Positions 2,668-50,382 of a DNA stretch of 64,000 bases are shown here, piece after piece. Origin of the DNA: a virus (lineage: Duplodnaviria; Caudoviricetes); IMG/VR virus record IMGVR_UViG_3300031134_000001, positions 160,001 through 224,000 of that record; one strand, given 5' to 3'. The notes below the pieces were generated by a model, which was not told where the DNA came from, searched no databases, and saw only the letters and a program-made list of their open reading frames with translations. The translations under genes were made by a program, and so were the position numbers. Every line of letters starts with the position of its first letter. Positions within the stretch are counted from its first letter, which is position 1.

Positions 2668-3678
2668 ATGCAACTCGATTTGAACGCAACACAAGGCAAG
2701 CGGGTCCATGCGTCGGACAAACGCATGATCAATGCTACCACCGACGTCAACCAACTCGTACCGTTCAAGTACAAGTGGGCGTGGGACATGTATCTGGCAG
2801 CCTGCGAGAACCAGTGGATGCCAACTGAACACGACATGCGTGCTGATGCCGGTCAGTGGCAGTCGAGTGTTGTCAGCCAAGCTGATCGCTGCGCTGTGTC
2901 GCGCGCGCTGTACGCGTCGGTGTTCCAGTACGGTCAAGGCATGGACAGCATCGTCCTGGGCATCTATCGTCACCTTACGGCGCCTGAAGCGCGTCAGTAC
3001 CTGCTGCGTCAAAGCTTCGAAGAAGGTCTGTCCTCGCATGCGTTCTCTCACATCGTAGAAGCGCTGGGTGACATCCCTGAAGATACGATCGACCGTTCGA
3101 TCCGTAAAGACTACCTCGCGCCTTACCTGGCCGTGCTGTCCGATCCGAAGTACAAGACCGGCACGGTCGATACTGACCAAGCGTTGCTGCGCGCCCTCGC
3201 GGTGTACACCGTGACCATGAAAGGGTTGTTCCCGCTCGTGGACATTATCCAAGTGCTGGAACTGGGTCAGCGTGGCAAGATGGCGTCCGTGGCAGCTATG
3301 CACCGTCTGGAACTTCGGGACTTGACGATGCATTGCAATTTCGGTGTCGAAGTCATCAACGCCATCAAGACCGAGAACCCGCATCTCTGGACGCCTGCGC
3401 TGCGCGCTGAGCTGACCAACCTCATCACTCAGGCCGTCGATATCGAAGCGGCGTACATCGGTCAGATCTCGCCAGCAGACGACGCCAAGTACGCGATGTT
3501 CCTGCGCATCGTGGCCAACCGCCGCGCTAACCAAATCGGTCTGGACAACATCTATCCGAATCCTGGCAAGAATCCTTTCCCGTGGATCGGTGAACTGCTG
3601 GGTCTGCGCAAAGATGACGCCGGCTTCGAGGTGCGCGCCATGGAAACCAAAACCACAGAAACCCTGAGCTGGGACTAA
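2668..3678 (+). CDS. ribonucleotide reductase beta-subunit homologue, catalytically degenerate
   Basis: NQLVPFKYKWAW, WMPTE, EARQYLLRQSFEE, RDLTMHCNFG, NPFPW...LSWD match the Pseudomonas/Burkholderiales NrdB type; 4 of 6 metal ligands and both redox Tyr substituted. Confidence 0.9.
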   Translation: MQLDLNATQGKRVHASDKRMINATTDVNQLVPFKYKWAWDMYLAACENQWMPTEHDMRADAGQWQSSVVSQADRCAVSRALYASVFQYGQGMDSIVLGIYRHLTAPEARQYLLRQSFEEGLSSHAFSHIVEALGDIPEDTIDRSIRKDYLAPYLAVLSDPKYKTGTVDTDQALLRALAVYTVTMKGLFPLVDIIQVLELGQRGKMASVAAMHRLELRDLTMHCNFGVEVINAIKTENPHLWTPALRAELTNLITQAVDIEAAYIGQISPADDAKYAMFLRIVANRRANQIGLDNIYPNPGKNPFPWIGELLGLRKDDAGFEVRAMETKTTETLSWD

Positions 3679-3685
3679 TCATTAC

Positions 3686-3713
3686 CCCTAGTCTTTCGAG
3701 GCTAGGGTTTTTT
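3686..3713 (+). terminator. intrinsic terminator
   Basis: CCCTAGTCT-TTCG-AGGCTAGGG followed by T-run. Confidence 0.85.
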
Positions 3714-3721
3714 CTTACGTT

Positions 3722-3735
3722 TATATCACTAGGAG
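3722..3735 (+). promoter_or_regulatory. putative phage early promoter core (TATATCACT)
   Basis: Recurrent motif just after a terminator and before an RBS; resembles phiKZ TATTAC early element. Confidence 0.55.
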
Positions 3736-3742
3736 TATACCC

Positions 3743-4549
3743 ATGAAAATTTCGAACATCCCGATGATCGTCGCTCTGCTGGCCACTGCCCTGGCTGGCT
3801 GCGGTAATGACCACCCACCCGCACCACAAGCGCAATACCAGCAACCTGTCGTCATCCAGCAAGCCCCAGCCGTTCAGCAAGACAACTCCGGCACCAACAT
3901 GCTCGCCGGCGCCGCCCTGGGCGCAGCTGCTGCCATGGCACTGTCCGATCGCGATCGTCACTACGACAACCGGCCTCGCCATGTCGAGTACGAGAACAAG
4001 ACCACGATCGTCAACAACTACCACGGCCCTAAGCCTGGTGTCGCGGCACCGGTCGCCGCTGCTGCTGTTGCCGCCGCGACACCAGCACGTACGCCGGTTT
4101 CCGATCAACTGGTGAACATGGCCAAAACGACGCCGCCTGTTGTCAAGCCCAGTTATGCTGCGCCGGGCACTGCCAGTCCAGTCCCAGCGCCGTCCCAAGC
4201 CTTCCTGACCGGCAACAAGACTCTGACCGTATCGAATACGCCAGCGGTCAAGTCGTACGCACCAGCAGCCGCTCCGGCGTTGCCTGCACCCAAGCCCATG
4301 TTGGCGTTGCCTGCACCTACCCAGGTCAGCTTGACCAAACCGGCACCGACGGCAATGCAAGTTCCTAAGACTGCACAGAACGCCATCCCGCGTCCATCGA
4401 ACTACAACTACAAACCACTGCAAGCATCGTACACGCCGACCAAGTCGTATTCGTCCAGCTCCTCGTACAAACCGTCCAAGAGCTACAGTAGTTCGAGCAG
4501 CTCGCGCAGCTCCAGCAGTTCGCGTAGTTCGAGTAGTTCCCGTCGTTAA
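3743..4549 (+). CDS. lipoprotein with Pro/Ala-rich linker and Ser/Arg tail
   Basis: Signal peptide with lipobox LAGC; MLAGAALGAAAAMAL Gly-zipper-like segment; SSSSR repeats. Confidence 0.8.
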   Translation: MKISNIPMIVALLATALAGCGNDHPPAPQAQYQQPVVIQQAPAVQQDNSGTNMLAGAALGAAAAMALSDRDRHYDNRPRHVEYENKTTIVNNYHGPKPGVAAPVAAAAVAAATPARTPVSDQLVNMAKTTPPVVKPSYAAPGTASPVPAPSQAFLTGNKTLTVSNTPAVKSYAPAAAPALPAPKPMLALPAPTQVSLTKPAPTAMQVPKTAQNAIPRPSNYNYKPLQASYTPTKSYSSSSSYKPSKSYSSSSSSRSSSSSRSSSSSRR

Positions 4550-4552
4550 ACC

Positions 4553-4592
4553 ATAACCACTCCCAGCCATTGATTTGGCGGGAGTGGTTATT
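4553..4592. terminator. bidirectional-looking hairpin terminator
   Basis: ATAACCACTCCC ... GGGAGTGGTTAT inverted repeat. Confidence 0.75.
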
Positions 4593-4606
4593 AAAGGAGT
4601 GTTGTT

Positions 4607-4876
4607 ATGTCGCTTATGTATTACTCGTCCGGTTTCTCCAGTTTGTTCCATAGCTATCGTGACAGGTTCACTCAGTATTACGATCGCCCCTTTTACGCTG
4701 AGCTTAATGGTGGCAGTAATCTGCAAGAGATATATCGCCACCGGTTGGTAGTGAAAAATCAACGGGCTGCAGCACAATCCAAACGGCACAAGTCGCGCCA
4801 CATCCATGTGCCGGTGGACAAAGACGTCCCGCAGAAGATTCTGAACTTCATTAACCGCGCATGCGTATTGGAATAG
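4607..4876 (+). CDS. hypothetical protein
   Basis: AAGGAG RBS. Confidence 0.7.
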   Translation: MSLMYYSSGFSSLFHSYRDRFTQYYDRPFYAELNGGSNLQEIYRHRLVVKNQRAAAQSKRHKSRHIHVPVDKDVPQKILNFINRACVLE

Positions 4877-4931
4877 ATTAATTCAAATATACATTACTGT
4901 AGTGTCATAACCAACAACAAAAGAGGTGAGC

Positions 4932-5639
4932 ATGAGATGTTATATGAAATTGCGGGACCGTATTGATTTGGCTCAGCGAATCATGCGCGGTCAGCGTTTG
5001 GTAAACGTTGTCAATGAAACGGGTTACAGCACGGAAATGGTAAAACGTTTTGTCAGCGAAATCATCTTTCAAACGCATTGGATCGGTGTACACGCCGGCT
5101 TTAAGGTGGACATGCGCGATGTGACATCGGTTGAGCTGCGAAGAAACAAAAAGCACTACCAGCCAATCGTCAATTACTTTGAACAGCAGTGTATTGCTTT
5201 TCAAAAGAAGCCAACCCCTGACTATCCGTTTCTTTACCTGGACTTACCTAAAAGAGCTCAAGCCCCCATCTTGGCATTCATGAGCAAGCGGTTAGGTCCG
5301 CAGGTGTTACCAACCATCCAGCAAGTTGTGGATGTCTTCAAAGAAAACAGCGTGTATTACGATATGCCCAAAATGGGTGAATTGTCCATGCTCAAGTTGT
5401 TTGAGGCAATCCGGGAAAACAACTTGGAATTCATGTGGGGAGACAGGCACCTACCTCAAGTCGAGAAGTACATCGCCAGCGCAAAAATAAAACTGCGTCA
5501 CTATAACCAACAACAGAAAGCTTTACATGCTAAAAAGAATCAAGTGGTCTTTCCAACAAGCCTTCGTCGCAACCTTCGTGTGGAGCTTCACGATGCTGAT
5601 GTTTGTGGTGATCGTAGCCGGTCAACGCAGCATCCCTGA
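4932..5639 (+). CDS. hypothetical protein
   Basis: Promoter-like TACATTACT at about 4889 and CAACAACAAAAGAGG leader before ATG 4932. Confidence 0.7.
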   Translation: MRCYMKLRDRIDLAQRIMRGQRLVNVVNETGYSTEMVKRFVSEIIFQTHWIGVHAGFKVDMRDVTSVELRRNKKHYQPIVNYFEQQCIAFQKKPTPDYPFLYLDLPKRAQAPILAFMSKRLGPQVLPTIQQVVDVFKENSVYYDMPKMGELSMLKLFEAIRENNLEFMWGDRHLPQVEKYIASAKIKLRHYNQQQKALHAKKNQVVFPTSLRRNLRVELHDADVCGDRSRSTQHP

Positions 5640-6033
5640 CGTCTGGGCACTTCTGCCCGCGGTAGCAGTCTTCCCGCCCCTGGTATATCGCTGGTGTCAG
5701 TTTTACTTCATCTACGGTGTATCCGACTTCCAGACAGAAAAGCACGGTATCTCGATCGGGCATCGCAACTCGTTTGTATCGTCCAGCCGCAAACATCTCA
5801 TCCCCTCACCATGGGAGCGCGTGTCGCTGTATCCGTGGGAGGTTGTGGAGTTTGATAACGGTATGCTCATTCTTTACGAGCGCGGAACGACGATGGAAGC
5901 GTGTGAGGAGTTCTTGTCTGAATGCTTGGGCTACCGCAAATTCTGGCCGCTCATCGATAGCGGTAAACGCTACACCGGGTTCAAGGTCTACGACTACCGA
6001 CTCGGTTTTTTAAAGTTGGTTAAAATTCATTGA
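5527..6033 (+). CDS. membrane protein
   Basis: Two N-terminal TM segments; 113-nt overlap with upstream ORF. Confidence 0.6.
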   Translation: MLKRIKWSFQQAFVATFVWSFTMLMFVVIVAGQRSIPDVWALLPAVAVFPPLVYRWCQFYFIYGVSDFQTEKHGISIGHRNSFVSSSRKHLIPSPWERVSLYPWEVVEFDNGMLILYERGTTMEACEEFLSECLGYRKFWPLIDSGKRYTGFKVYDYRLGFLKLVKIH

Positions 6034-6095
6034 CCAACGGTATTAATAGGGGAGTCCTTAGAGACTCTCCATTTAACTAACAACAAGGAAACAAC

Positions 6096-6701
6096 ATGAA
6101 CCAACAAAACAGCGCAACTTCGATGGAAATGTCGTTCAGTAACTTCGACTTCAACATGAACCACATGAAGTTCATTGCCGGTCTGTTCACCAACATTCAT
6201 TCGGCCAAAGTGGCCAAGCTGGCCGAAGACATCCGCCTGTGGGGGCTGGCACGTTCGGCCAACAGCAAAAGCAGCGTCGCGTATCAAGTCCGCATTCACA
6301 GCAGCCGCGACATGGTCGTAAGTGGCAGTGAGTTCATCAGTCTGACCACCGACGAAGTGTTGTCCGATGTTGACAATATCCTGAGCGTCGGTCTGTCCTC
6401 GTACCGGCCAGATGACTGGGAAACGTTCCGGGCGGTGGTTAACCCAGAAGGTGCTCTGGAACTATACGACCGCGCCCTTCGCCTGCTTAAACCGCAGCTG
6501 GGTGAAGTCAACCTGGCAGCCTATGTCGCGCTGCGTCACCTGATCGCAACTGCCGCTCGCTTTTCTCAAGTGGCGCAGATTCAAGATGAATCGATCTCGT
6601 TCGAGTATCAAGACGGAAAAATGGTCCACATCTTCAAGGTGGTCATTCCGCACGTAGCGCCGCGCGCCATGGCCAATCTGGCAAACGAAGCAACGGCATA
6701 A
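6096..6701 (+). CDS. hypothetical protein
   Basis: AACTAACAACAAGGA leader; strong codon bias. Confidence 0.8.
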   Translation: MNQQNSATSMEMSFSNFDFNMNHMKFIAGLFTNIHSAKVAKLAEDIRLWGLARSANSKSSVAYQVRIHSSRDMVVSGSEFISLTTDEVLSDVDNILSVGLSSYRPDDWETFRAVVNPEGALELYDRALRLLKPQLGEVNLAAYVALRHLIATAARFSQVAQIQDESISFEYQDGKMVHIFKVVIPHVAPRAMANLANEATA

Positions 6702-6912
6702 CCGCCCCCTCCCCTGCCTGCGGGTGGGGGATTTGTGATATCAAAAAAATGACTACTTACGATATTGGCTACCAAGCATATAGCCAACGCCACCCACTTG
6801 ACTCCACCAAGCCCAATGTGTTTGATCCCTCCCAGCCGCAAGAATGGCAAAACGGATGGATACAAGCCCAACACGATGAAGTCGATCTGTTAACAACCGG
6901 TTAAGGTTTATT

Positions 6913-7491
6913 ATGGCTATTGATACTCTGTACGCAGCGATGTTGGCTGAACAATGCGCTGCGCGCCACCGTACGCCCAAAGCAACGGTTACGCATCCGA
7001 AAGGTGTGATCGTGCCTGGTAGCACCTTGCTCACCGAGAACATCCGCGACCCAGACTACGTGCCGTACTGCGGCCCGTGCGATCCGATGCAACGTATGCG
7101 TCGTAACGAGACGGGGTTTTACTGCCCAACTTGTTTGAATAAAACAAACTGGGACTTATCGAAATTCAACGGTAACGCCGACGTTCAGTTCGATCCTGAA
7201 TATGCGGACATGGAATGGGTGGCTACGCATCAAGCTAAAGTGCAAGCTTTGAAAGACCATGAAGCAAAGCATAAAAAACCGTTTTCAGAAAACCAAGATC
7301 CGGCAACGAAGTTCCAGATCGACTGGTCGGAAGATGCGGGCAAGAAGAACACCCACTTCCATCCGTGTAATAAATGCGGTAAATCTTTTTTTGGTAAAAA
7401 GAGCCGCAAGTACTGCGTCGTGTGCAACGAACAAAACGAAGAGCGTTTGAAACAACAGAAAATGCGCAACGATCCCATGCCGTGGAAATAA
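6913..7491 (+). CDS. Zn-ribbon protein
   Basis: Two pairs of CxxC motifs (CGPC/CPTC; CNKC/CVVC). Confidence 0.7.
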   Translation: MAIDTLYAAMLAEQCAARHRTPKATVTHPKGVIVPGSTLLTENIRDPDYVPYCGPCDPMQRMRRNETGFYCPTCLNKTNWDLSKFNGNADVQFDPEYADMEWVATHQAKVQALKDHEAKHKKPFSENQDPATKFQIDWSEDAGKKNTHFHPCNKCGKSFFGKKSRKYCVVCNEQNEERLKQQKMRNDPMPWK

Positions 7492-7507
7492 CTTAAAAGG
7501 AACCGAT

Positions 7508-8410
7508 ATGGCAGCCTACCAGATTCACACGATCCAGATGGCCAACCATCGCAAGTTGAAAGATGGGATGCATCTTCTGGACACGACTGCCAAATCGGGC
7601 GTTCCTGCGTTCGCTCCTGTCTTTTCAAATGTGATGGCTTATAAGGACGGTACGCTGTCTGAAGAAGAATACACCCGTCGCTATTTGGAGAAAATGGCGG
7701 CATCCCAAGTTACTTCCCCGAGTATCTGGGAAGAGCTGTTAGTGCATAAGCAAGTGGCTGTGGCATGTTACTGCACACCAGGCAAGTTCTGCCACCGGCA
7801 TTTGTTTGTGCCGATCATGAAAGAGTATCTGGAAGAACGCGGTCACACGGTTGAACTCATGGGGGAGTTAGGTGGCAAGCAGTATTGCAACCACATCCCA
7901 GAAGCGATCGTATCGATTCCGTTTGAGCGTAAGATCATTCCGTTTTACACACGCGACCATGTGCTGTCGAACCACGCCCCTATCGGCTTTACTGTCAAGG
8001 ACATCCATTTCAAGCATGGTGAGATGTTCCTGATGTACTGCAAGGCTGTGTTGATGGGCGACACGGAAACAGCCAACAAGATCCTGGTCACTGATAACCC
8101 ACAAGCGTGCAAGATGTTAGGCAAGCGCGTTAAGCCGTGGGATGAGCAAAAGTGGTTACTTAAGCGGCGCGGTATCAGTAACCGTTTGTGTTACGAGAAA
8201 GCGGTGCAAAACCCAGAGGTGGATGAATATCTCCTCGGCACCAATAACGATATTTTGGTGGAGGCCAGTCCCTCCGACCGCATCTGGGGTGTGGGTATTG
8301 CTGAGAACGATCCCCGTATCTTTGACGTTAACGAATGGCTGGGACTAAACCTATTGGGTGAGTCCTGGATGTGGGCTCGACGTAAGCGACAAGAAGATGT
8401 TATCTTTTGA
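7508..8410 (+). CDS. DUF488-like domain fused to NADAR domain
   Basis: N-terminal ACYCTPGKFCHRHL; C-terminal YCKAVLMGD, KMLGKRVKPWD, LVEASPSDRIWGVG, WLGLNLLG (NADAR signature). Confidence 0.88.
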   Translation: MAAYQIHTIQMANHRKLKDGMHLLDTTAKSGVPAFAPVFSNVMAYKDGTLSEEEYTRRYLEKMAASQVTSPSIWEELLVHKQVAVACYCTPGKFCHRHLFVPIMKEYLEERGHTVELMGELGGKQYCNHIPEAIVSIPFERKIIPFYTRDHVLSNHAPIGFTVKDIHFKHGEMFLMYCKAVLMGDTETANKILVTDNPQACKMLGKRVKPWDEQKWLLKRRGISNRLCYEKAVQNPEVDEYLLGTNNDILVEASPSDRIWGVGIAENDPRIFDVNEWLGLNLLGESWMWARRKRQEDVIF

Positions 8411-8419
8411 AAGTATTTC

Positions 8420-9076
8420 ATGAATCAATCAGCGTTTAAGTTTCACTTCTTCGGGGCGCTTGATGACAACAATCCCTTTTCCAAAAAGAACCGTGCAGAA
8501 TCTTTGCGCGGTGCGATTGCGTTATTACTGATCCCTTTTTTTGTTTACTTTTTCGGCGTTGCCATCGAGACTGAATTTAGTGCGTCGACATTATTTTTCT
8601 CGTGGCTGGTAGGTGTCGAGACCGCCTTGTTAGAAGTTGTTTACCAATCAGCGATGGTCGGTTGGTACGCACGGCGACGTGAGCGTGCGGGTTATAACAC
8701 AATCGATCGCTCCCCTGGTTATTTCGCCAAACACCTCACACTGTTTGATCGCTTTCATAAGCAGCTCATGTGTGACCATATTGACGACGACGATGAGCGC
8801 ATCGTCGCCTCAGCTAACCTGGACGATAACGACGGTGTGTGGTATGTGTTATGCCCAGGCAGGCACCATCACGTCATTTGGTTTATGGCCCAACACGGTA
8901 TGAATAAACGTATCGTCGACCAAGGTTTCCTGACCAACAAATACCGCTATTTGGATCGTGAAGCTGCCCGAGCGATGGCGATGCGTAATGGGCAGTGTCC
9001 TAATCCTGACCATAGCGTTGATTTGTTCTCAGAAGACCTCTGGTCAATACCTCCCTATCTCGCACAGAAAGAATAA
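8420..9076 (+). CDS. membrane-anchored conserved phage protein
   Basis: N-terminal TM helices; C-terminal GRHH...QGFLTN..YLDREAA..A..NGQ...LFSEDLW motif seen in phage hypotheticals. Confidence 0.7.
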   Translation: MNQSAFKFHFFGALDDNNPFSKKNRAESLRGAIALLLIPFFVYFFGVAIETEFSASTLFFSWLVGVETALLEVVYQSAMVGWYARRRERAGYNTIDRSPGYFAKHLTLFDRFHKQLMCDHIDDDDERIVASANLDDNDGVWYVLCPGRHHHVIWFMAQHGMNKRIVDQGFLTNKYRYLDREAARAMAMRNGQCPNPDHSVDLFSEDLWSIPPYLAQKE

Positions 9077-9078
9077 TC

Positions 9079-9666: not shown

Positions 9667-9671
9667 ACTAC

Positions 9672-10157: not shown

Positions 10158-10249
10158 CATACTCCCCCGCCACCCTTACAGGTGGCGGGAGGTATGAACT
10201 ATTTTTTATTGGCAACATTGAAAATATAACGAAATTGTTAGGAGGTATC

Positions 10250-11137: not shown

Positions 11138-12697
11138 ATGAACTCCAATAACCAACAACAAGAACCAACCAAATACGTTTTCTCCATCGATGAGGACGGC
11201 GACATCAGCCCGCATGCAGTAAAGGCAGGCACCGCAGTGCCTGAAATCCCAGCCGGCGTTTATACGTTGGTGTATATCGAACCAATGCCTGGTCGCGGCC
11301 CGCAGCTCTATCTGCGCCCAGAAAAGAACTTCCAGATTCCAGAGCGCCTCTACGGCGACGTCAAGCTGAACGTCGATCGCTATCTGCGTTCGTACGAGAT
11401 GAACGACAAGAATCTGGGTGCGCTGTTCATCGGCGAACAAGGTTCGGGTAAAACCATGCAGCTCAAAGCACTGGCGGTGAAAGCTGTCGAGCTGAGCTAC
11501 CCTGTGATCCTGATCAACGAGGTGATTCCAGGTTCGCTCCTGAACTGGTTCCTCTCGACCATTGTTCAGCCTACGCTCGTGTGTTTCGACGAATTCGAGA
11601 AATCGTACGACACCCCCGATAAGCAACGCCCGATCCTGCAGCTGCTCGACGGCACCAACACGGGTAGCAAAAAGATGTACTGCTTCTCGGCCAACGAGCT
11701 CAAGAAGATCAGCCCGCACATGGTCAATCGCCCAAGCCGTATTCGCTATGTGCGCACGTTCCGTCGCCTGGAAATCTCCACGGTGGTGGACTACGTGCAA
11801 ACCAACCTCAAGAACTGTACGGAAGACCACGTCCGTGCGTTCATCCATCTGGCTCTGGCTGACGGTCTGGACGAAGATCGCAAGAACATGTCGAACGGCA
11901 TGAACTTCGACATGATGGCCGAATACGTGCGCGAGATGAACCAATTCCCTGGTTCGCTCAACGAGGTGCTTCACGTGATGGGGTTGAAAGGCAGCGATAC
12001 GTGGGCCCGCTTCGAAGTGAACGGCTTTGTCGACGGCGAGCGGGTGCATCATGCCATGGCGCACGGCACGCACAGCGGCGCCTACGCGGGTAGCGATGAA
12101 TGGTTGATCAACTTCAGTATCCATGTAGAAAAACTGCGTGAGAAAGCTACCGAAGATGAAGTCGACCGCTGGAAATGGGACTACGACAAAGTCGAGCTCA
12201 CCCAGCGCGATTTCAAGAGCTTTGGCGATTCGCATGATTCGCTGATCTTTGAGAAAGATGGCGTGGAATACCACCTGCGCTATATCGACTTCGAGAAATC
12301 GAACAAGCTGAAAATCAAAGTGGAGGAAACCAATTCGGGAAAGCGGCCCGCGCAGCAGCCAAAGACGGCGGCTCTGCGCGTGGAATCGGCCGCGGATTCA
12401 GTTTCCCCATGTCCCTCCCCCTTGACCACAGCTTCGTCTTCCCACTCAGCCTCTCCTTCGGAAGAATGTACCGTGAAGCCTTCGGAGACTACAAGCCAGA
12501 CGACTACGCCGATGGCGGAAATCCAAAAAACATCCGAGAATCCGACGCAAAAGGAATCGAGCAGTCAACCTCCGGAGGAAAAGAACTCGACACCGACACC
12601 AACGAGAAACTCTCTGAAGACGGTGATGATGACGACGATGACGACGAAAGAAAGCCCGAAGGATGCCTCGACTGGTCATGACCCAGATCAGTCGTAA
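11138..12697 (+). CDS. AAA+ ATPase paralogue 1 (0-frame product; possible -1 frameshift isoform ending 12681)
   Basis: Walker A GEQGSGKT, Walker B VCFDEFEK, sensor SAN, NRPSRIRY. Confidence 0.9.
   Translation: MNSNNQQQEPTKYVFSIDEDGDISPHAVKAGTAVPEIPAGVYTLVYIEPMPGRGPQLYLRPEKNFQIPERLYGDVKLNVDRYLRSYEMNDKNLGALFIGEQGSGKTMQLKALAVKAVELSYPVILINEVIPGSLLNWFLSTIVQPTLVCFDEFEKSYDTPDKQRPILQLLDGTNTGSKKMYCFSANELKKISPHMVNRPSRIRYVRTFRRLEISTVVDYVQTNLKNCTEDHVRAFIHLALADGLDEDRKNMSNGMNFDMMAEYVREMNQFPGSLNEVLHVMGLKGSDTWARFEVNGFVDGERVHHAMAHGTHSGAYAGSDEWLINFSIHVEKLREKATEDEVDRWKWDYDKVELTQRDFKSFGDSHDSLIFEKDGVEYHLRYIDFEKSNKLKIKVEETNSGKRPAQQPKTAALRVESAADSVSPCPSPLTTASSSHSASPSEECTVKPSETTSQTTTPMAEIQKTSENPTQKESSSQPPEEKNSTPTPTRNSLKTVMMTTMTTKESPKDASTGHDPDQS
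12337..12383 (+). promoter_or_regulatory. candidate -1 programmed frameshift cassette
   Basis: In-register G_GGA_AAG (12337-43), 5-nt spacer, stem CGCGCAG/CTGCGCG (12349-55/12374-80) plus AGCC/GGCT; -1 frame open to 12681. Confidence 0.6.
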
Positions 12698-12790: not shown

Positions 12791-14227
12791 ATGAACATTC
12801 AAAAACAACAACGCGAAGAAGTCAAGTACGCTTTCGATATCGCAGACGACGGCGTGGTTCGTCCAATGCGTCGAGTGCGTTCGAACATGGTGGCTGAATT
12901 GCCACCGCGGGTATACCGCTTGGTTGTCGATCAGACTGGTCCGCATCTGGTGCCAGAAAACGACTTCAACATGCCGGCACGGGTGTACGGTACATCGAAC
13001 ACCTACGCGCAACGCTTTATCCGCGCATACGAGCTGGGTACCAAAAACCTCGGCGCGTTGCTGATCGGTTTGCCTGGTTCGGGTAAGACCTTGACGCTCA
13101 AGCACGTGGCCATGCTCGCGGTGCAAGCGATGATGCCGGCGATCATCGTCAACACGGCGATCTCCGGTCAGATCCTAACGCAATTCCTCTCGACCATCAC
13201 CCAGCAATGCGTGGTCTGCATGGATGAATTCGACAAGAAATACGGCGGCAAAGATTCGGACGGCGATTCGATCCCGCTGGAGATGCAAGACTCGATCCTG
13301 GAACTGCTCGATGGCGCGACCGTCGGCGAAAAGAAGATGTTCATTCTGACCGCCAACGACGACGGCAAGATCTCGCCTCTGCTCAAGGACCGTCCTAGCC
13401 GGATTCGCTACACGATCAAGTACGCGCAAATCGACCAGGACACCGTCATCGATTATGTCAGCTCCAACCTCAAGAACTGCACGGAGGATCATATCCGCGC
13501 TTTCCTGATGGTGGCCAACGCCGACCGCATGAGTCGCACCGGCATGAACTTCGATTCGATGGTCGAACTCGTGAACGAAATGAACTACTTCGAATGCTCG
13601 CTCGACGAAGCGCTCGAACTCATGCTGCGTAACGGCAAGGAATCCTTCACGTCATTTAATGTCAAGGTGTTCCGTGAAGGCGTGTGGATCGATACTTCAG
13701 CCGGCTTCGGTAGTCATAACGGCGTGTACATGACGAATGGTGACTACGTCCTCACCTTCCAAATGGTGGTGCCGTCGACGCAGGAGGATGTACCCGCCCA
13801 GCGTTACGAGGTGAGACTCACGGCTGATCATTTCGTCGGCTTCGCTGAAAGCCGTTCGGCCTTCGAGTTCAAACTCAATGAGTTCACGTTCATGCTCGAC
13901 ATGGTTGATCAAGCAACAGCCAGTCGAAATAGTACGGCTGCAAAGAACGCTTATGAACAGCGGCCTGACGTGATCGCATACAAAGAGCAGAAGCAAAAGG
14001 AGAAGGAGAAAGAAGCTGCTGAAAAGAACGCGGCAGAAAACGACGATGAAGATGATGGTCTGAAAATCCGTCGTCCGCGGATGTTCGGCATGGATCTGGA
14101 GGCCATGGGCATGGGTCGTCACCATTTGACTAGCCTTATCCGCGATTACGGGACCGAGGTGTCTTCCGATCTGTTGCCGCCGGCGATGAATTTCGGCGCG
14201 CCCGACCCTGACGACAAAGCATCATAA
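12791..14227 (+). CDS. AAA+ ATPase paralogue 2
   Basis: GLPGSGKT, VCMDEFDK, LTAN, DRPSRIRY; VIDYVSSNLKNCTEDHIRAF closely matches paralogue 1. Confidence 0.9.
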   Translation: MNIQKQQREEVKYAFDIADDGVVRPMRRVRSNMVAELPPRVYRLVVDQTGPHLVPENDFNMPARVYGTSNTYAQRFIRAYELGTKNLGALLIGLPGSGKTLTLKHVAMLAVQAMMPAIIVNTAISGQILTQFLSTITQQCVVCMDEFDKKYGGKDSDGDSIPLEMQDSILELLDGATVGEKKMFILTANDDGKISPLLKDRPSRIRYTIKYAQIDQDTVIDYVSSNLKNCTEDHIRAFLMVANADRMSRTGMNFDSMVELVNEMNYFECSLDEALELMLRNGKESFTSFNVKVFREGVWIDTSAGFGSHNGVYMTNGDYVLTFQMVVPSTQEDVPAQRYEVRLTADHFVGFAESRSAFEFKLNEFTFMLDMVDQATASRNSTAAKNAYEQRPDVIAYKEQKQKEKEKEAAEKNAAENDDEDDGLKIRRPRMFGMDLEAMGMGRHHLTSLIRDYGTEVSSDLLPPAMNFGAPDPDDKAS

Positions 14228-19710: not shown

Positions 19711-19918
19711 TACTTCCGAAGCGCTCTTTCAAGAAGCCAAAAACTTGATTGAGCGCGCTCACGTGATCGGCGTGGTGATTAACTTATCCATGCCATCGGC
19801 CAAGCAAAAGCAAACCTTCGGCACGACTGACGCTGTCGTCGTTGCTCCTGACACCCACGGGTCGGGGAAGACGTTGTTCTACCCGACCCCTAGCCGAACC
19901 GGACAGAAATTCTTATGA
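19703..19918 (+). CDS. hypothetical protein
   Basis: Overlapping start/stop. Confidence 0.65.
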   Translation: MADTSEALFQEAKNLIERAHVIGVVINLSMPSAKQKQTFGTTDAVVVAPDTHGSGKTLFYPTPSRTGQKFL

Positions 19919-42324: not shown

Positions 42325-42328
42325 AGTC

Positions 42329-42685: not shown

Positions 42686-42695
42686 GGAACATTCC

Positions 42696-43404: not shown

Positions 43405-43419
43405 ATGAAGGAGTAGTAG

Positions 43420-43901: not shown

Positions 43902-43914
43902 GAAAGGAATTATC

Positions 43915-44424
43915 GTGAACCAACCAATTGAACGCGGCAGCGCCGAATGGCATCGCCGAGTGCAGATGCTACTGCAAAAGCAAGTGGGTCTGATCAAAGA
44001 ACATGGCTATACGGTGCAGGGCGTATTTCCTAGCGACGAGGATACGCTGAAAGGTGATGGCAGCGACTCCTTCTTCTACACCATCGGTCTGTTCCAGAAG
44101 CGCTGGCCAGAGCTGCTGGTCTTGGGCGCACTGCACGGCGGTTCAGCTGCCGGTATCATCAAAGACGTCTACGACTTCTGGATGAAGAATGGTGACGCTT
44201 CGATCGGGGACATCCCAGCAGACGTGCCTGGCGGTAAGCTGCGCTTGAATCTAGTCCAACGCGGTGTCGGTCAGCAATTCACCGTCGGAGTTCGCACCTT
44301 CAAGCGCGACGAGATATACGAAGTGGTCCAGGTGCTCTGGCCCGATAACAAAGGTTGCCTGCCCGATGAGTCCGGTTATTCGACCGAAGCAGCACTCAAG
44401 CAAAAGATCTTGGAAAAGATTTAA
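43915..44424 (+). CDS. DUF4262-like protein
   Basis: IKEHGYTVQGV, FYTIGL...PELLVLG, QVLWPDNKGCLP. Confidence 0.75.
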   Translation: MNQPIERGSAEWHRRVQMLLQKQVGLIKEHGYTVQGVFPSDEDTLKGDGSDSFFYTIGLFQKRWPELLVLGALHGGSAAGIIKDVYDFWMKNGDASIGDIPADVPGGKLRLNLVQRGVGQQFTVGVRTFKRDEIYEVVQVLWPDNKGCLPDESGYSTEAALKQKILEKI

Positions 44425-44498
44425 TATCAAGGGCGTGACACCACCCCCCACGATCGTCAAATCCACACCCGTGGTCAACAACCGGAGTAATTGAACCC

Positions 44499-44729
44499 AT
44501 GGCGGGCATCATTCTTTTCGCAATCTGGCTTTTGATAGGCTGGATGTTTATATTTGCTCGAAGGGGACACACAGCAACACAAATCGCTCACGTCCGCCGA
44601 CAGGGGTTTCCACTATTTACAGCCATAGCCACGCTGTGCGTATTAACACTCTGGCCAATTGCCCCGGCAGTCCTGCGTGGACTGATCTGGGCACTGAATA
44701 AACTTCTCGACACTGAAGTCGACAAGTAA
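44499..44729 (+). CDS. membrane protein
   Basis: Two TM segments. Confidence 0.65.
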   Translation: MAGIILFAIWLLIGWMFIFARRGHTATQIAHVRRQGFPLFTAIATLCVLTLWPIAPAVLRGLIWALNKLLDTEVDK

Positions 44730-44761
44730 CCTACAACTAACAACACAAAAGGAAAAGCACC

Positions 44762-45574
44762 ATGAAACAAATCTCGATCGTTACCGAACCAACCAAACCG
44801 CAATACGGCGCTTGGGGTTCTATCGCTCTGCGCCCACACAAGAAAAATATCGAACACCTGGACGATCTGCCGCTGGCGTATGTCATGCTGGCTAACTTCA
44901 ACACCGCCCAAAACATCATCCAACCACTCGATGTTGAGCTGCATGCCGCGGCCTTCGAAGAACTGAACTGGGATGTTGTCGCCCTGCAGATCGGTGAGGC
45001 CATCCAAAAGCTGGTATCGGAAAACACGCCTGAGGACACCGTCTACGAAATCCGCGCACCACACGGCTCCACCAACGGCTGTTCGCAAACCATGCTGACC
45101 AACGAAGCCCGACTCGAAGCCATCGGCAAAAACGTCATCATTCAATACCGCAATCGCCACTCTGGCTTCTATCAAGCCGTCAACAATGAGCCGTTGATGC
45201 ATTCCGGCATTAGCACTCATGGCAATATCATCAACATGCATCTGGCTGTCGGCGCAGGCATTACCTTCCAGACCTACAACGAGAAGGAGCAAGTCCGCGC
45301 TATCGAAAACGCAGTGGGTGGTTTCTACGGCACTTGCCGCCTCGACGGCGTGCTGAAGCATTTCTCGCTGACGCAGGAAATGCAGTATGGTTCGGCCGCG
45401 ATTCCCCTGAACGAATACGTCTTCAGCGACAACTTTTTGGTGCCGCTGATTAAGAATGCAGTGGGCGCAGCCTTCCCATTCCTGGACGCGCTGCACAACC
45501 CGCTCACAAAAATCTCGATCAGCTCGCGCGGCGACACCATGACCGATTGCGCTCTGCGCGGTCGTTCGTTCTAA
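44762..45574 (+). CDS. hypothetical protein
   Basis: AACTAACAACACAAAAGGA leader; terminator follows. Confidence 0.8.
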   Translation: MKQISIVTEPTKPQYGAWGSIALRPHKKNIEHLDDLPLAYVMLANFNTAQNIIQPLDVELHAAAFEELNWDVVALQIGEAIQKLVSENTPEDTVYEIRAPHGSTNGCSQTMLTNEARLEAIGKNVIIQYRNRHSGFYQAVNNEPLMHSGISTHGNIINMHLAVGAGITFQTYNEKEQVRAIENAVGGFYGTCRLDGVLKHFSLTQEMQYGSAAIPLNEYVFSDNFLVPLIKNAVGAAFPFLDALHNPLTKISISSRGDTMTDCALRGRSF

Positions 45575-45633
45575 ACTCGCAGGAGGGGATCGCAAACCCC
45601 TCCTTTTTTCTATCATCTTACCAGGATACTAAA

Positions 45634-47046
45634 ATGAACATTTCGCTCAAGATCACCAGCTTGCATTTCTCGAACATGGGAGCGCAGCAACAGCCGCACC
45701 ACCGCAGTTACTTGGCGGACTTTACCAATTCGACCAAAAAGAAAATCAAAGCGCTTGACGGTCAAGCCATGCGTCAAGCAGTGCGTCGCCTGTCCGCCGA
45801 CCATCCCGACAACGAAGAATACTTGCTCCACCCATTCGCTACCAACGTCGTGGGCTTTTCCGTACACAGCAAAGTCGTTCCTTTCCCCATGGGCAAACGT
45901 AATGGCTGGGAAGATGGTGTGGCAAGTTTTGTACTCCACGTTTCGGTGATGAATGGCGCTATGCCTAAGAAATACATCATCGCCGGTTACACCGATCGTC
46001 CTATCCCGGAAGACGGCGCAGCCTTTGATCCTGACATGCTGCTGATGATCAACTCGATCTTTGAAATTATCGAAGCACGTGGGTTCGGCGCCATCGTGCG
46101 TAACGCCAGTCATGTTCTGTCAAATCCGCAATACCACGGCCCGTATGGCGATGCAGATTCACCGAACAGTAATCCTCATCGCATGCGACCGCAAGAAGTC
46201 TTTGGCCGGATGGAAATCAACAGCATGCCTGAATTGATGAATGGTCAAAGCGTGTATGATACGCGTAGTGCACACACCTCTACAGCAATGCTCAGTAACT
46301 ACGGTTATAGCAATCCAGCGCACTGGCTAAGCACCATCGTTAACGCATCAGCCAAGCATCACATCCGCGAACTTCAAACGCCACATGAGTATCTTCAGAC
46401 GTCGACAGGGATCACGGCGCTCGCAAGTTCGGTGCGTGAACAAAGCGCACATGCAAATGTGTTCTTGGCGGCGCTGAAAAAAATCATCGGTCACGGCGCA
46501 CCTTCACCAATCTTTCAACTGAAAGACTTGGCGCCTATCGATACTGATTATCTCGATGTCTGCAATGTCGTTGAAGGATCGCGTCACCACATCGACATGG
46601 GCTTTGAAAGCTGGGGCGCTTTCGATTTGATGTCGTTGGCAGCGCACCACATCAACCAAGTCGTGCCAACGATTCTGGCTAAGCATGGTTTGCGCTCGAT
46701 TGCGTTTAACGCTTTCCTGGAAGCTGGAGCAGTCCAACAAGACGGCATCACCATCAGTAACGTTGGTGCTCTCGTTGGCGACACTGGTATGTCGCCGCAA
46801 ATGAACGTGGTGGAAGACCTGCGCTTGCAAGTGTTTGATGTTGTGGAAAAGATGTTGGGTGGTGACTATCGTTTTGCTGGTAAATTCGATCTGTTTGGCA
46901 CCAGTAAGTTCATGCTCGAACACCGCGGTGAGACGAAGCACTACGGCTTCCCAACGTTTGCCAATGCGTTGACGTCGCCTATCATTGCCGATCAGCTGGT
47001 TCTCGAACACATGGCTGCGGGTATTGAAGAAGCGCTGGTCTCGTGA
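45634..47046 (+). CDS. phiKZ gp69 (PicA/Imp1)-like protein, divergent
   Basis: NGW...FVLHV...IAGYTD...DPDM..INS...SHVL...RMRPQEVF...YDTR...NPAHWLS...FANALTSPI resemble the recalled core family; start revised to ATG 45634. Confidence 0.55.
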   Translation: MNISLKITSLHFSNMGAQQQPHHRSYLADFTNSTKKKIKALDGQAMRQAVRRLSADHPDNEEYLLHPFATNVVGFSVHSKVVPFPMGKRNGWEDGVASFVLHVSVMNGAMPKKYIIAGYTDRPIPEDGAAFDPDMLLMINSIFEIIEARGFGAIVRNASHVLSNPQYHGPYGDADSPNSNPHRMRPQEVFGRMEINSMPELMNGQSVYDTRSAHTSTAMLSNYGYSNPAHWLSTIVNASAKHHIRELQTPHEYLQTSTGITALASSVREQSAHANVFLAALKKIIGHGAPSPIFQLKDLAPIDTDYLDVCNVVEGSRHHIDMGFESWGAFDLMSLAAHHINQVVPTILAKHGLRSIAFNAFLEAGAVQQDGITISNVGALVGDTGMSPQMNVVEDLRLQVFDVVEKMLGGDYRFAGKFDLFGTSKFMLEHRGETKHYGFPTFANALTSPIIADQLVLEHMAAGIEEALVS

Positions 47047-47053
47047 TCATTTA

Positions 47054-47098
47054 ACGGCATAAGACAGAGAGCCTTCGGGCTCTCTTCTTTTTCTATGC
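47054..47098. terminator. ACGGCATA...TATGC-flanked hairpin
   Basis: GAGAGCC-TTCG-GGCTCTC plus T-run. Confidence 0.85.
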
Positions 47099-47117
47099 TT
47101 TCTTTTTTTGTTTCCTT

Positions 47118-47381
47118 ATGCCGCCTGATGTAGAACTCAAAGAATTGTTAAAACGCGTTCGCGCCTGGCACACAGTCAGGATGCGAAGATACAAGAACGA
47201 CTTACCGGACGACGTCTACTACGCCGCTTACTTACCCAGCTTACAATTATACCAACGCGCTAAGCAGAGTTACTACCTTAGCGATTTACGAGAACTGCGC
47301 ATTATTGCAAGATCCGTCAATTACCACATTGAACCGTGGTCAGTGACGGCGTGGTACGCGTTAAACACTAAGAAGGTGTGA
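47118..47381 (+). CDS. hypothetical protein
   Basis: ORF track; no clear RBS. Confidence 0.45.
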   Translation: MPPDVELKELLKRVRAWHTVRMRRYKNDLPDDVYYAAYLPSLQLYQRAKQSYYLSDLRELRIIARSVNYHIEPWSVTAWYALNTKKV

Positions 47382-47395
47382 ATTTATTTCACGCC

Positions 47396-47410
47396 TATAT
47401 CACTTAGGTG
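47396..47410 (+). promoter_or_regulatory. putative early promoter core TATATCACTTAGGTG
   Basis: Recurrent motif. Confidence 0.55.
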
Positions 47411-47484
47411 TTGTAGAGAGAAAACAACAACAGTTCTTTTCGTTATTTGACTTACTTACAAAAATCAACTACAGGAGTTAGATC

Positions 47485-48240
47485 ATGGCGGTGGCAGGAG
47501 CACATTACAAGAAGTTCAATGAAGACGAGTGGGACATTATCGAAGAACGCTTTCCGCCAAGCGTTTCGCATTACAAGCAGATTTTCGAAGAAGACCATCG
47601 CAAGCACTACAAGATCCGCGTAACGGAAAACGGCATCAAAGTCGATCGCGTCGTTATTATCAGTGACGTTGATTTCGACGACATGATTCACGTTACGATG
47701 GAAGAAGCGACGGTACATCCAGATTCGGACGATACCCATTTCGTCATGCACCGTGAAAAGTTTAAGATTCACGCTAACGTGCTGGATGAAGTTGAATTTC
47801 GCTTCAAGTATATCAGGTACTTCCTGATGCAAACGATCAACCCTAAAACCGTCCCACCGTTTGATCTGATCATTAAAGCTGAAAAGATTACGAAGGACTG
47901 GTTGGGTCGCAGCTCCACTAAAGTGGTGCTGTTTTTGGACAAAGGTGATGTCGGCGATCAATGGTGTTACAAGATCACGTCAGTGAGTTATCCTGACAAA
48001 ATCATCGTATCGCACCTCGACCCCGCTACGGCCGACGGCCCTCTGTACTCCAAGCTCGTGAACGTGTGGCATGATGGCCTACGTCAAGGACGACTGCAAG
48101 GCGTCGTAGAAGTGGGGGAAAAGATGGCGATGAATACCTTTCGTGAAGCGTTCACCGCCGGCCAAATCCTCCAAGGAGAAATCCCCGATTCCGTGCGCGA
48201 GTTCTTGCGAAACGGTTTTATTGACCAGCTGAAAAAATAA
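47485..48240 (+). CDS. hypothetical protein
   Basis: AGGAG RBS. Confidence 0.8.
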   Translation: MAVAGAHYKKFNEDEWDIIEERFPPSVSHYKQIFEEDHRKHYKIRVTENGIKVDRVVIISDVDFDDMIHVTMEEATVHPDSDDTHFVMHREKFKIHANVLDEVEFRFKYIRYFLMQTINPKTVPPFDLIIKAEKITKDWLGRSSTKVVLFLDKGDVGDQWCYKITSVSYPDKIIVSHLDPATADGPLYSKLVNVWHDGLRQGRLQGVVEVGEKMAMNTFREAFTAGQILQGEIPDSVREFLRNGFIDQLKK

Positions 48241-48248
48241 GGTACACC

Positions 48249-48986
48249 ATGGAAATTCGTAGACACGCTGGCAGTCTGGATGACTCGATAGCAACTGCCA
48301 AAGAGATCCCGAACACAATGGCCGCGATTCGCGCGTACGCTCTTGAGCAAGCGAAGTATCTCTCCTATACGGAAGAAGAACTGGCTTCGTTTGCTGTGGA
48401 ACCGCATAGCGGCCCTGATGAGCGCATTGGTTGGGATGCCACGTTCATCATCACGTACGTGAGTCACAACACCGGTAGCCGTGGTGTGTTTGGATTTTGC
48501 GATCAAGCGCCAGAGGAAGGCATTTACGCCAAACTTCTCAACCTCAATGGACCGACCCGCGGTGGCAACTTCTACCCGGCAGCGTTGATGGCAGAAGCGG
48601 TCAAGAAGTTCAATGCTAAGAACCGCGGAGAATTCTTCGGCGAGACGCGTACTCCCGATATATCGATCGAAGGTCTTGGGTTAGCACCTGATACTCCCTA
48701 TAAAGATCGCGCCGACGCGCAAATAAGGCGGGTCGCGATGGTGGCTGGTGATGAGATGGCTCTTCAAGGCACGAACTTGCGCATTGAAGACGGGTTCGTT
48801 GTCGCCACTGTTAAACCAGCAGGCGTGGCAGCTAACGTCGTGGAAATGTTACAAAATGCCGGTAAGGTACATTTCGCCATGCGCGCGTTTGTCAGCTACG
48901 AGTTTCAATTGCCGATGGACCAAGGCCCGCGGGTGGTGGATCGGTGCGACATCGTAACCTTCGATCTGTGTGATAAACCCCTGTAA
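48249..48986 (+). CDS. two-domain protein; C-terminus resembles a degenerate prohead protease
   Basis: N-terminal RRHAGSLDDSI...DERIGWD small phage domain; C-terminal FFGETRTP...KPAG...FAMRA...IVTFD. Confidence 0.5.
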   Translation: MEIRRHAGSLDDSIATAKEIPNTMAAIRAYALEQAKYLSYTEEELASFAVEPHSGPDERIGWDATFIITYVSHNTGSRGVFGFCDQAPEEGIYAKLLNLNGPTRGGNFYPAALMAEAVKKFNAKNRGEFFGETRTPDISIEGLGLAPDTPYKDRADAQIRRVAMVAGDEMALQGTNLRIEDGFVVATVKPAGVAANVVEMLQNAGKVHFAMRAFVSYEFQLPMDQGPRVVDRCDIVTFDLCDKPL

Positions 48987-49007
48987 CTGTAAGAAAGAAC
49001 CAACAAC

Positions 49008-49946
49008 ATGAATGAAGCTGCTATCCTTTCCGACCGCCAGATCCGTGAACTGTGCGAGAAACCTGTCGGCACCCTGCGTTACACCGATTCCCGCCATGGT
49101 CCGGTTACTGAAGAACGTCGGGTACAAGTCTACGCTGATCAACTCGTTAACGGGTATCGCCAACACTTTGATGCTTACGCGGAAAAGCACGGCGGTAAAC
49201 AGATCCACGGTACACGCATTACGCTGCATGACGTTCACAGCGACGTCTATCAAGAGCACTATCGCGACTTCCAACCAATGATCGAACCGTTTTCTCCGCA
49301 CCAAGTTCGCGAGAACGAGCGCAACGCTACGGACGAAGAAGTGTATGTGATTCAACGCATGCTCAATGAAGAAGGTGTCGGCAATAAAGTTGACATCATC
49401 GCGGAACTGCAAAAGAAATGGCCTAGCATCCGGTCATTCCGGCTAGACATCATGCTGGGCTACCAGATCCTGGAAAAGATCGTCAGCTACGGTTTGACCT
49501 CGTTCGGTTACGATGTGCGCTGCGGTCGTGAATTCAAGATCTTCACCAACATCAATTCCACGCTGATCGATCCGAAGAACTTCGACGACAAGAACTTCGT
49601 GGACTTCGTCGGCGACGTTTGCATTATCCCGCCCAATTCGTTCGTGCTGGCCCGGACCATGGAACGCTTTGATCTGCCCCGCGACATCGTCGCTGACTGC
49701 GTGGGTAAGTCCACTTACGCCCGGTGCGGCATCTCCATCATGGTCACGCCACTCGAACCTGAGTGGGACGGCTACCTGACGCTGGAGTTCGCCAACACGA
49801 CCCCGCTGCCAGCCAAGCTGTATGCTGGTGAAGGTTGTGGTCAGATCCGCTTCTTCCGCGGCAGCGAAGGCTGCGAGACGTCGTACCGTGACCGTGGTGG
49901 CAAGTACCTCGGTCAAACCGATCAACCTGTCACACCGAAGATGTAA
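49008..49946 (+). CDS. dcd: dCTP deaminase with two N-terminal insertions
   Basis: [71 protein letters not shown]. Confidence 0.95.
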
Positions 49947-49947
49947 C

Positions 49948-50382
49948 ATGAGCCAAGAAATCAACGGTCCTCATCTTGAGACGAATGGTTTTTACTTTCT
50001 TCTCAAGAAAGCAGCTTGCGCTACCTCGCTCAGAAACGCTTTGAGCAGTCACGCTTCTGGCGAGCCCCTCCATCCGAGTTATCTGCATTCGTGGCTCGCT
50101 GTCCTGCAAACCTTCAGTCTCTTCCGGCGGCATCAGATCGTCTTCGAAAAGGAAATCTTGTTTGAGCCAATCGTCATTACCGACGGTAAGCTCGAACCAG
50201 TGCTTGATGCCAAGCTGTGCGGCGTTCTGGTGATCTCTCCGTCGGAAGACTACGAGGGCGGTGAATACAACGGCGCCAAGGTCGAACAAGGCGGCGCTGT
50301 GTTCTATCGCCCTGAAGACTACCAAGACTTCGCACCGGTCACGGAAGGCGAATGCAAGGCGTACTACTTCGCACTTAAATAG
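49948..50382 (+). CDS. degenerate 2OG-Fe(II) oxygenase-like protein
   Basis: KLCGVLVISPSEDYEGGE...GAVFY...PVTEG resembles PKHD-type C-half; iron His residues not seen. Confidence 0.4.
   Translation: MSQEINGPHLETNGFYFLLKKAACATSLRNALSSHASGEPLHPSYLHSWLAVLQTFSLFRRHQIVFEKEILFEPIVITDGKLEPVLDAKLCGVLVISPSEDYEGGEYNGAKVEQGGAVFYRPEDYQDFAPVTEGECKAYYFALK

Follow-up and report, generated by a model that had tools for sequence, protein, structure and literature searches.

The window analyzed here is a 64,000-bp stretch (G000:C1:160001-224000) of the complete, 271,026-bp genome, bounded by direct terminal repeats, of a nucleus-forming giant phage of the chimallivirus type, whose relatives are uncultured. 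It carries six unusual genes: a short-tailed chimallin (ChmA2), a second PicA (PicA2), an NrdB-like protein that is a catalytically dead ribonucleotide reductase (RNR) beta subunit (dead R2), a stand-alone major capsid protein (MCP) insertion (I) domain, a protease-like fusion protein, and a protein resembling 2-oxoglutarate (2OG) oxygenases. These are read here, with moderate confidence, as several independent accessory paralogs rather than as one system; they are conserved in the lineage, have lost the parts required for activity or assembly, and probably keep the binding surfaces of the parent proteins. Each copy would thus probably still bind the partners of the original, and the functional steps proposed for each gene below are those that we infer. 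The most novel element of the set is a family of tail-less chimallins that co-occurs with a PicA paralog.

A sequence-only reading of the window had described the same six genes as degenerate or displaced copies of essential genes, and had proposed that they form a decoy or dominant-negative arsenal that the phage has made out of its own core genes. On searching, five of the six homologies were confirmed with tools, and the sixth, that of the 2OG-like protein, is plausible. Counterparts of five genes occur elsewhere in the genome, namely canonical ChmA, PicA, MCP, an S80 protease, and a 2OG oxygenase. The "core gene" description fails for NrdB, which has neither a second NrdB nor an NrdA beside it.

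The comparison set consisted of the source genome (G000), three uncultured relatives (G001, G002, and G003), and PhiPA3. G001 is collinear with G000, sharing 171 reciprocal best hits with a median identity of 58% and a 5th percentile of 29.6%. A megablast search of the whole window against isolate phages gave no match. The whole-genome census of paralogs that the sequence-only reading had called for found 14 families comprising 37 of the 266 proteins of G000, and paralogy as such is therefore common here. All six genes have codon usage in the normal range, as that reading had claimed; its companion claim of good ribosome-binding sites extends to four of the six, which have a Shine-Dalgarno-like AGGA or AAGG at their 5′ side. 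Genes of the window lie nearly all on the plus strand, as do all features given below, and coordinates are those of the window unless the genome is named.

ChmA2, a Short-Tailed Chimallin

ChmA2 (22603-24288) is a protein of 561 aa that was recognized by comparing its family profile with the chimallins of the PDB. Taken alone, it gives no direct match in Pfam, PHROG, or tblastn. An exhaustive HMMER search returned one relative at 86% (P0002) and nine distant ones, with lengths of 510-569 aa, and the profile of the resulting 11-member family matched the solved chimallins of Goslar (7sqt, 3.6e-24), PhiPA3 (8fne, 1.9e-15), and 201phi2-1 (7sqq, 1.3e-13). The alignment covers nearly the whole core, from approximately residue 68 to 586 of the 201phi2-1 chain, and 16 columns are invariant across 11 sequences that are ~25% identical. 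No family member scores above the cut-off of the chimallin model PF25677; three of the 11 match it at all (best E 3e-05), and the window protein is not among them. The canonical ChmA of the same genome (genome 86573-88594, 673 aa) matches PF25677 at 7e-22, and its gene lies at 86.6 kb, as opposed to 182.6 kb for chmA2.

The two kinds of chimallin differ in their tails. In alignment with 201phi2-1 ChmA, the core of canonical chimallins is preceded by 58-68 residues and followed by 50-54, the G001 protein having 127 before the core when counted with its first-start open reading frame (ORF). The short family (12 members, including the G003 copy) has 3-45 residues before the core and 11-20 after it, with corresponding values of 10-11 and 16 for the window protein. 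In 201phi2-1 ChmA, an N-terminal segment (NTS; residues 48-61) and two C-terminal segments (CTS1, 590-611; CTS2, 622-631) mediate lattice assembly, and NTS/CTS deletion abolishes chimallin self-assembly in vitro (10.1101/2022.02.14.480162). With C-terminal tails of 11-20 aa, the short family is missing CTS2 and most of CTS1, and the earlier description of a short-tailed ChmA is upheld both by the profile matches and by this difference in length. Most short chimallins (P0005, P0006, P0008, and P0010-P0013) carry a conserved basic-Arg-Pro-(Thr/Ala/Ser) motif within the 11-20-residue tail, which is absent from the window ChmA2 and P0002, and in several the N-terminus retains an N..F.R.G motif resembling the NTS.

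Both a canonical and a short chimallin are found in G001 and G003, while G002 and PhiPA3 possess the canonical protein alone. In G003 the short copy has a 16-aa C-tail and adjoins the I-domain gene. No match was found in isolate phages by tblastn with three members of the family, in a metagenome scan with the ChmA2 alignment, or in IMG/VR scans with the window ChmA2, P0006, P0007, and P0011. A family of tail-less chimallin paralogs was likewise not found in the literature searched, where a 2025 review is silent on paralogs, duplication, and decoys.

ChmA2 is the last gene of an apparent transcription unit. The unit begins with a promoter-like motif, TATATCAC (20962-20969), followed by an AAA+ ATPase gene (21014-22102; Pfam AAA, 8e-10) whose 45% identical ortholog occupies the same place in G001, a 141-aa ORF known from its gene call (22116-22541), and chmA2 itself; it is closed by a terminator-like hairpin with a 14-bp stem and T run (24292-24325). 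The motif, approximately ATTTCACGaCTATATCACT, has 13 exact TATATCAC cores in the genome, all of which are intergenic and oriented as the genes are. It stands ahead of canonical chmA, of the gp68-PicA block, and of an RNA polymerase gene, in addition to the ATPase-ChmA2 unit. Sites in the window are at 3722, 20962, 36845, 38936, and 47396, with weaker ones at 4890, 10969, and 59533; the site at 47396-47403 stands ahead of a unit encoding a 251-aa protein, the protease-like protein, a dCTP deaminase-like protein, and the 2OG-like protein. The motif is probably the signature of a single temporal class of promoters read by the RNA polymerase that the phage encodes, and this class may be the early one.

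A chimallin of this kind would have a core that accepts the tails of its neighbors but could not donate CTS1 or CTS2. It would then enter the shell of its own phage without propagating the lattice, as a subunit that forms an edge, patch, or docking site. Its probable working partners would be the co-occurring PicA2 and the AAA+ ATPase of the same transcription unit.

PicA2 and a Possible Second Shell Module

PicA2 (45634-47046, 470 aa) is a paralog of PicA/Imp1, the phiKZ gp69 family. BLASTP matches it to the syntenic gp69-like gene of G000 at 2e-16 and to PhiPA3 gp63, annotated as similar to phiKZ gp69, at 1.4e-10 over 518 columns, and the homology is full-length at 23-24% identity. The gp68-gp69-gp70 block beside the RNA polymerase genes holds the other PicA copy (genome 96941-98608). 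PicA2 is instead isolated between two terminator-like hairpins, one at its 5′ side (45581-45604) and one at its 3′ side (47066-47085), and is indeed the lone PicA-like gene that the sequence-only reading had described. A longer ORF with a TTG start at 45547 was rejected for this gene, as it would span the 5′ hairpin, and the start was placed at 45634.

Two PicA-family genes are present in G001 and G003, and one in G002 and PhiPA3. In tblastn searches with PicA2, each of the 63 matching isolate phage records (63/63) showed a single PicA-like place, and no PicA paralog was found in the literature searched. ChmA2 and PicA2 therefore share a distribution among the genomes compared: G000, G001, and G003 have the two together, and G002 and PhiPA3 have neither.

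This pattern raises a tentative alternative, probably not correct as a whole, in which ChmA2, PicA2, and the AAA+ ATPase constitute a second, specialized shell module, that is, a gate or patch that would serve import, export, or the docking of capsids, with the other four genes as unrelated accessories. Besides the joint presence and absence of the two proteins, such a module is favored by the position of ChmA2 at the end of an ATPase-led unit with a chmA-type promoter motif, and by the synteny of the ATPase in G001. However, the gene between the I-domain gene and ChmA2 in G003 is a 164-aa ORF and not an ATPase, ChmA2 and PicA2 lie ~21 kb apart in G000, and the sample is one of five related genomes.

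A Catalytically Dead R2

The NrdB-like protein (2668-3678, 336 aa) is an orphan RNR beta subunit belonging to Pfam PF00268, with PDB 6y2n as a structural relative. It matches the Pfam Ribonuc_red_sm model at 2e-46 (159 bits against a cut-off of 33.6) and the solved R2 structures 6y2n and 1syy at 7e-77 and 5e-70, respectively. When the protein is aligned by HMMER and with cellular NrdBs, two of the six metal ligands are left (E119 and H222). Ligand positions are replaced by S122, K185, and L219, and residues 86-92 contain no acidic residue. Furthermore, F126 occupies the site of the radical tyrosine, and T327 that of the C-terminal tyrosine used in proton-coupled electron transfer (PCET). The map of residues on which the sequence-only reading had called the protein dead, including the two remaining ligands, F126, and T327, was thereby reproduced.

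Neither a second NrdB nor NrdA nor NrdI (PF07972) was found in the whole G000 genome. An alignment-based scan located the dead R2 gene in three further jumbo-phage contigs, G001, G002, and G003. Common to all four phage copies are an E204-to-Lys replacement and the loss of H118 and the PCET tyrosine, with additional ligand losses being lineage-specific. All four also keep an N-terminal block, the motifs YRH.TAPE.RQY and NPFPW, and, as cellular NrdBs do, a TL.W[DE] end at the C-terminus. A scan of IMG/VR with the window protein found nothing, and no dead phage R2 was found in the literature searched.

The nearest cellular NrdBs are those of Betaproteobacteria, mostly Burkholderiales; the four that were aligned are 46-49% identical to the phage protein and carry every catalytic residue. 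In a pattern-seeded scan, nearly all of the 80 cellular NrdB matches kept were betaproteobacterial, with genera including Thiobacillus, Massilia, Paraburkholderia, Undibacterium, Methylotenera, and Gallionella. These matches hint at a betaproteobacterial host for the source phage.

Two other assignments were considered for the protein and rejected. A metal-free R2 of class Ie is at odds with the Phe at the radical site (F126), with S122, with the lack of NrdI, and with the ligand pattern. A class Ic reading of F126 does not agree with the closest cellular NrdBs, which are of class Ia type (Asp, Tyr), or with the three sister phage copies, which have Tyr.

In our reading, the dead R2 goes back to a class Ia NrdB of the host type and is now an old pseudoenzyme, apparently selected for its interaction surfaces. 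The C-terminus of R2 is the element that binds R1. Because this tail is kept, the dead R2 would be expected to bind the class I RNR of the host, either NrdA through the conserved tail or NrdB as a heterodimer, in the manner of yeast Rnr4 with Rnr2. Such binding may alter host dNTP synthesis. A host-mimic reading fits the protein, to judge from its closeness to betaproteobacterial NrdB, its retained tail, and the lack of a phage R1 partner.

A Stand-Alone Capsid Insertion Domain

The fourth gene encodes a 194-aa paralog of the MCP insertion domain (20296-20880; PF25620). It matches Pfam PhiKZ_MCP (PF25620) at 5e-20, over model positions 144-315 of 635 and nowhere else, is 31% identical to the phage's own MCP (genome 240738-242933), and aligns to phiKZ gp120 starting at residue 250. 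The I domain of the phiKZ MCP spans residues 248-472 (PMC11297242). Since the match is limited to the boundaries of this domain, the protein is a stand-alone insertion domain and not a random fragment; what had been noted as a capsid fragment amounts to the I domain by itself. The A and P domains of the HK97 fold are absent, and the protein therefore cannot be a shell subunit. A free I-domain protein might instead dock on the capsomer surfaces used by the I domains of the MCP, acting as an assembly modulator or a decoration.

G001 and G003 each have an ORF consisting solely of the I domain in the corresponding position, and G002 has two in tandem. By comparison, the 19 matching isolate-phage records have a single match place each, annotated in most as the MCP, and stand-alone I-domain genes were not found in the literature searched. 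Such genes point to a further, unstudied level at which capsid assembly is controlled.

A 119-aa gene (19915-20274) lies just 5′ of the I-domain gene. In G002 (G002:C1:153820-155505; L139 and L140), a two-gene cassette of both is tandemly duplicated, which suggests that the 119-aa and I-domain proteins may work together. A second kind of MCP piece is also seen in the relatives. A 131-aa ORF at G003:C1:258035-258202 (L141) matches only the C-terminal positions 566-623 of PhiKZ_MCP (E 5e-10), and there is a weaker match to a C-terminal piece at G002:C1:158504-158584.

A Fused Pseudo-Protease and a 2OG-Like Protein

The protease-like protein (48249-48986) is a fusion. Its first 87 residues (48249-48509) form a small phage domain (phrog_8785) that is a separate gene in G001 and G002, and the remainder (48510-48986) is a short S80-like pseudo-protease domain. 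Residues 88-245 resemble Peptidase_S80 in an Atlas comparison (TM 0.82, feature score 0.95), and hhalign aligns the protein with the true S80 protease of the genome (genome 44762-45562) over 140 collinear columns (E 0.0022). The window protein alone has no Pfam match. A 164-aa homolog in G003, however, matches both the profile of the protease-like protein (2e-11) and Pfam S80 PF20034 (34.7 bits, cut-off 23.4), and so bridges the protease-like protein to the S80 family. Peptidase_S77 (PF03420) was rejected as the phage protease, as it is absent from the genome and the real protease is S80.

S80 proteases use a His-Ser-Asp triad, and short prohead-protease paralogs, namely SPN3US gp117, 201phi2-1 gp206, and PhiPA3 gp143, have already been described (Ali et al. 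2017, PMC5694885). In the window domain, the His is replaced by Thr and the Ser by Ala, the Asp is kept, and the sequence ends just after TFD. The homologs in G002 and G003 and PhiPA3 gp143 have also lost the Ser, and all end at the same point. The description of this protein as a dead protease thus proved sound with respect to both homology and active site. A short S80-like domain of the gp117 type could bind protease partners or substrates without cutting them.

The last gene (49948-50382, 144 aa) shows a probable similarity to the double-stranded β-helix (DSBH) fold of 2OG oxygenases, in degenerate form and on weak evidence. The original ORF call (49822-50382) overlaps the upstream dCTP deaminase-like gene, and the start was corrected to 49948, giving a frame that matches that of a 96% relative, P0014. 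The predicted structure, a low-confidence model (pLDDT, the predicted local distance difference test, 0.58), resembles clusters of 2OG-FeII_Oxy_3 (Atlas TM 0.61-0.66). Pairwise BLASTP to the canonical 2OG oxygenases gives 8e-4 for that of G001 and 0.014 for that of G000, with the alignment sharing an EYEGGE loop and PVT.G. In this alignment there is no HxD motif, the distal His is replaced by Gln, and the 2OG-binding Arg by Cys. No Pfam match was obtained, PF13640 included, and the gene was not found in G001-G003. It may be a lineage-specific degenerate DSBH domain.

Conservation, Rate of Evolution, and Alternative Explanations

The extra copies evolve faster than their parents and the genome median, yet most are positionally conserved. 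Between G000 and G001, the canonical copies of ChmA, PicA, and S80 are 58%, 52%, and 69% identical, while identity is 25% for ChmA2, 30% for PicA2, 36% for the I domain, and 42% for the NrdB-like protein. Among all G000-G001 identities, ChmA2, PicA2, and the N-terminal domain of the protease-like protein rank in the lowest 5%, and the NrdB-like protein in approximately the lowest quarter. Two gene orders are kept in G001, namely I-domain/ATPase/ChmA2 and PicA2/protease-like N-domain. G003 holds ChmA2, the I-domain gene, PicA2, a short S80 gene, and a dead R2, and G002 has two I-domain genes, a short S80 gene, and a dead R2, with no ChmA2 or PicA2. Most of the genes are kept at the same positions in G001-G003 and so are not decaying relics; the neutral drift that would have counted against the sequence-only reading is not what is seen in relatives at a median identity of 58%. 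The pattern itself is real and extends across more genomes than the sequence alone could show, and it divides into modules that differ in distribution and age.

Several points weigh against reading the six as accessory paralogs that have kept their surfaces. Fast evolution fits an arms race, with the copies as decoys or weapons, as well as it fits relaxed constraint following subfunctionalization, and G001-G003 are saturated for dN/dS. The co-occurrence of ChmA2 and PicA2 is suggestive and comes from five related genomes that are not independent. For the 2OG-like protein, homology is plausible but weak. Finally, AlphaFold2 gave unusable models, with pLDDT values of 29 for the protease-like protein (three sequences) and 38 for the 2OG-like protein (two sequences).

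If the shell-module explanation is combined with host mimicry, a wider picture can be drawn, although it is a rather doubtful one. The phage nucleus has been described as a one-protein (ChmA) shell, with PicA/Imp1 as an import licensing factor. In an uncultured clade of chimalliviruses, probably infecting Betaproteobacteria, the nucleus might instead contain two chimallins, with ChmA forming the lattice and ChmA2, together with the PicA paralog, forming a gate or patch or serving as a weapon against rival nuclei; the dead R2 would be a mimic that takes over host RNR. If true, the joint occurrence of a conserved second, tail-less chimallin and a second PicA would imply greater modularity of import and of shell make-up than the model phages show.

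A common arsenal, in which the six genes absorb host defense sensors of the capsid, protease, and shell or poison the assemblies of co-infecting phages, is improbable. All six keep binding-competent cores and lose activity, their low identities to G001 (from the lowest 5% to approximately the lowest quarter) are as expected of arms-race genes, and the dead R2 is similar to NrdB from the class to which the host probably belongs. Several facts nevertheless count against one single arsenal: the genes are distributed differently across the relatives (G002 is without ChmA2 and PicA2), NrdB is not a core gene of this phage, and the S80 paralog is an ancient, published family that occurs in the model chimalliviruses PhiPA3, 201phi2-1, and SPN3US (PMC5694885). 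Moreover, a poison subunit would also strike the phage's own shell, capsid, and importer. To our knowledge, there is no defense system that senses ChmA, PicA, or the S80 protease, which also counts against an arsenal. When truncated chimallin was overexpressed, it was partially incorporated and the 201phi2-1 shell was not disrupted (10.1101/2022.02.14.480162), which argues against a dominant-negative chimallin. A decoy or dominant-negative role is a minority possibility for individual genes, best for the dead R2 and weakest for the chimallin.

Decay of duplicates or gene fragments without function would account for the loss of catalytic residues, tails, and domains and for the low identity between relatives, but is very improbable given that up to four genomes, with 25-45% identity in these genes, have uninterrupted frames of matching length, and given conserved synteny, invariant core residues, normal codon usage, and precise domain boundaries (the I domain; ends after TFD).

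The set is of use in several ways. The ChmA2 family provides natural "tail deletion" variants for studying lattice growth and opening, and the dead R2, conserved in four jumbo phages without R1, is a candidate for a virus-encoded regulator of host RNR. In addition, names can now be given to several genes that jumbo-phage metagenomes list as "hypothetical."

Neighboring Genes of the Window

The window also contains a tRNA cluster and a scattered set of genes for nucleotide metabolism, comprising thymidylate synthase, dihydrofolate reductase, the dead R2, and the dCTP deaminase-like gene (49008-49946, phrog_1663). Thymidylate synthase (699-1769) is 26.5% identical to the gene at the same position in G001, compared with the 58% median, and is probably a non-orthologous replacement. 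Two adjacent, paralogous ATPase genes are located at 11138-12697 and 12791-14227 (phrog_2376; mutual phmmer 2e-80), the first of which has a G001 ortholog at 55% identity.

Comparison with Known Systems

Activity-less RNR subunits that are kept for protein-protein interaction are known from yeast Rnr4 and from the catalytically inactive R1 homologs of herpesviruses. Like Rnr4, the inactive R2 partner of Rnr2 (PDB 1jk0, 1smq), the dead R2 is an R2 homolog lacking cofactor and catalytic residues. Unlike Rnr4 and the herpesvirus R1 homologs, it is phage-encoded, has no phage R1 or R2 partner, and is of betaproteobacterial class Ia origin. The I-domain gene recalls T4 gp24, the vertex paralog of the MCP gp23, in being a capsid-protein paralog retained beside the MCP. 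It differs from gp24 in consisting of the insertion domain alone, without the HK97 A and P domains.

ChmA2 is homologous to canonical ChmA (201phi2-1 gp105, Goslar, and PhuN of PhiPA3) throughout the two-domain core, that is, the N-terminal domain (NTD) and C-terminal domain (CTD). It departs from the canonical proteins in its short tails, its score below the PF25677 cut-off, its status as a second, distant copy, and an identity to G001 of 25% versus 58%. PicA2 is likewise homologous over its full length to PicA/Imp1 (phiKZ gp69 and PhiPA3 gp63), from which it differs in length (470 aa versus 548-555) and in lying outside the gp68-gp70 block.

The protease-like domain follows the SPN3US gp117 family, whose members share a size of ~136-165 aa, an end after TFD, the lack of a C-terminal targeting region, and an incomplete triad. 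SPN3US gp117 keeps Ser and Asp and PhiPA3 gp143 keeps His and Asp, whereas the window domain has lost both His and Ser and is fused to the N-terminal phrog_8785 domain. Relative to the published short S80 family, only this fusion is new.

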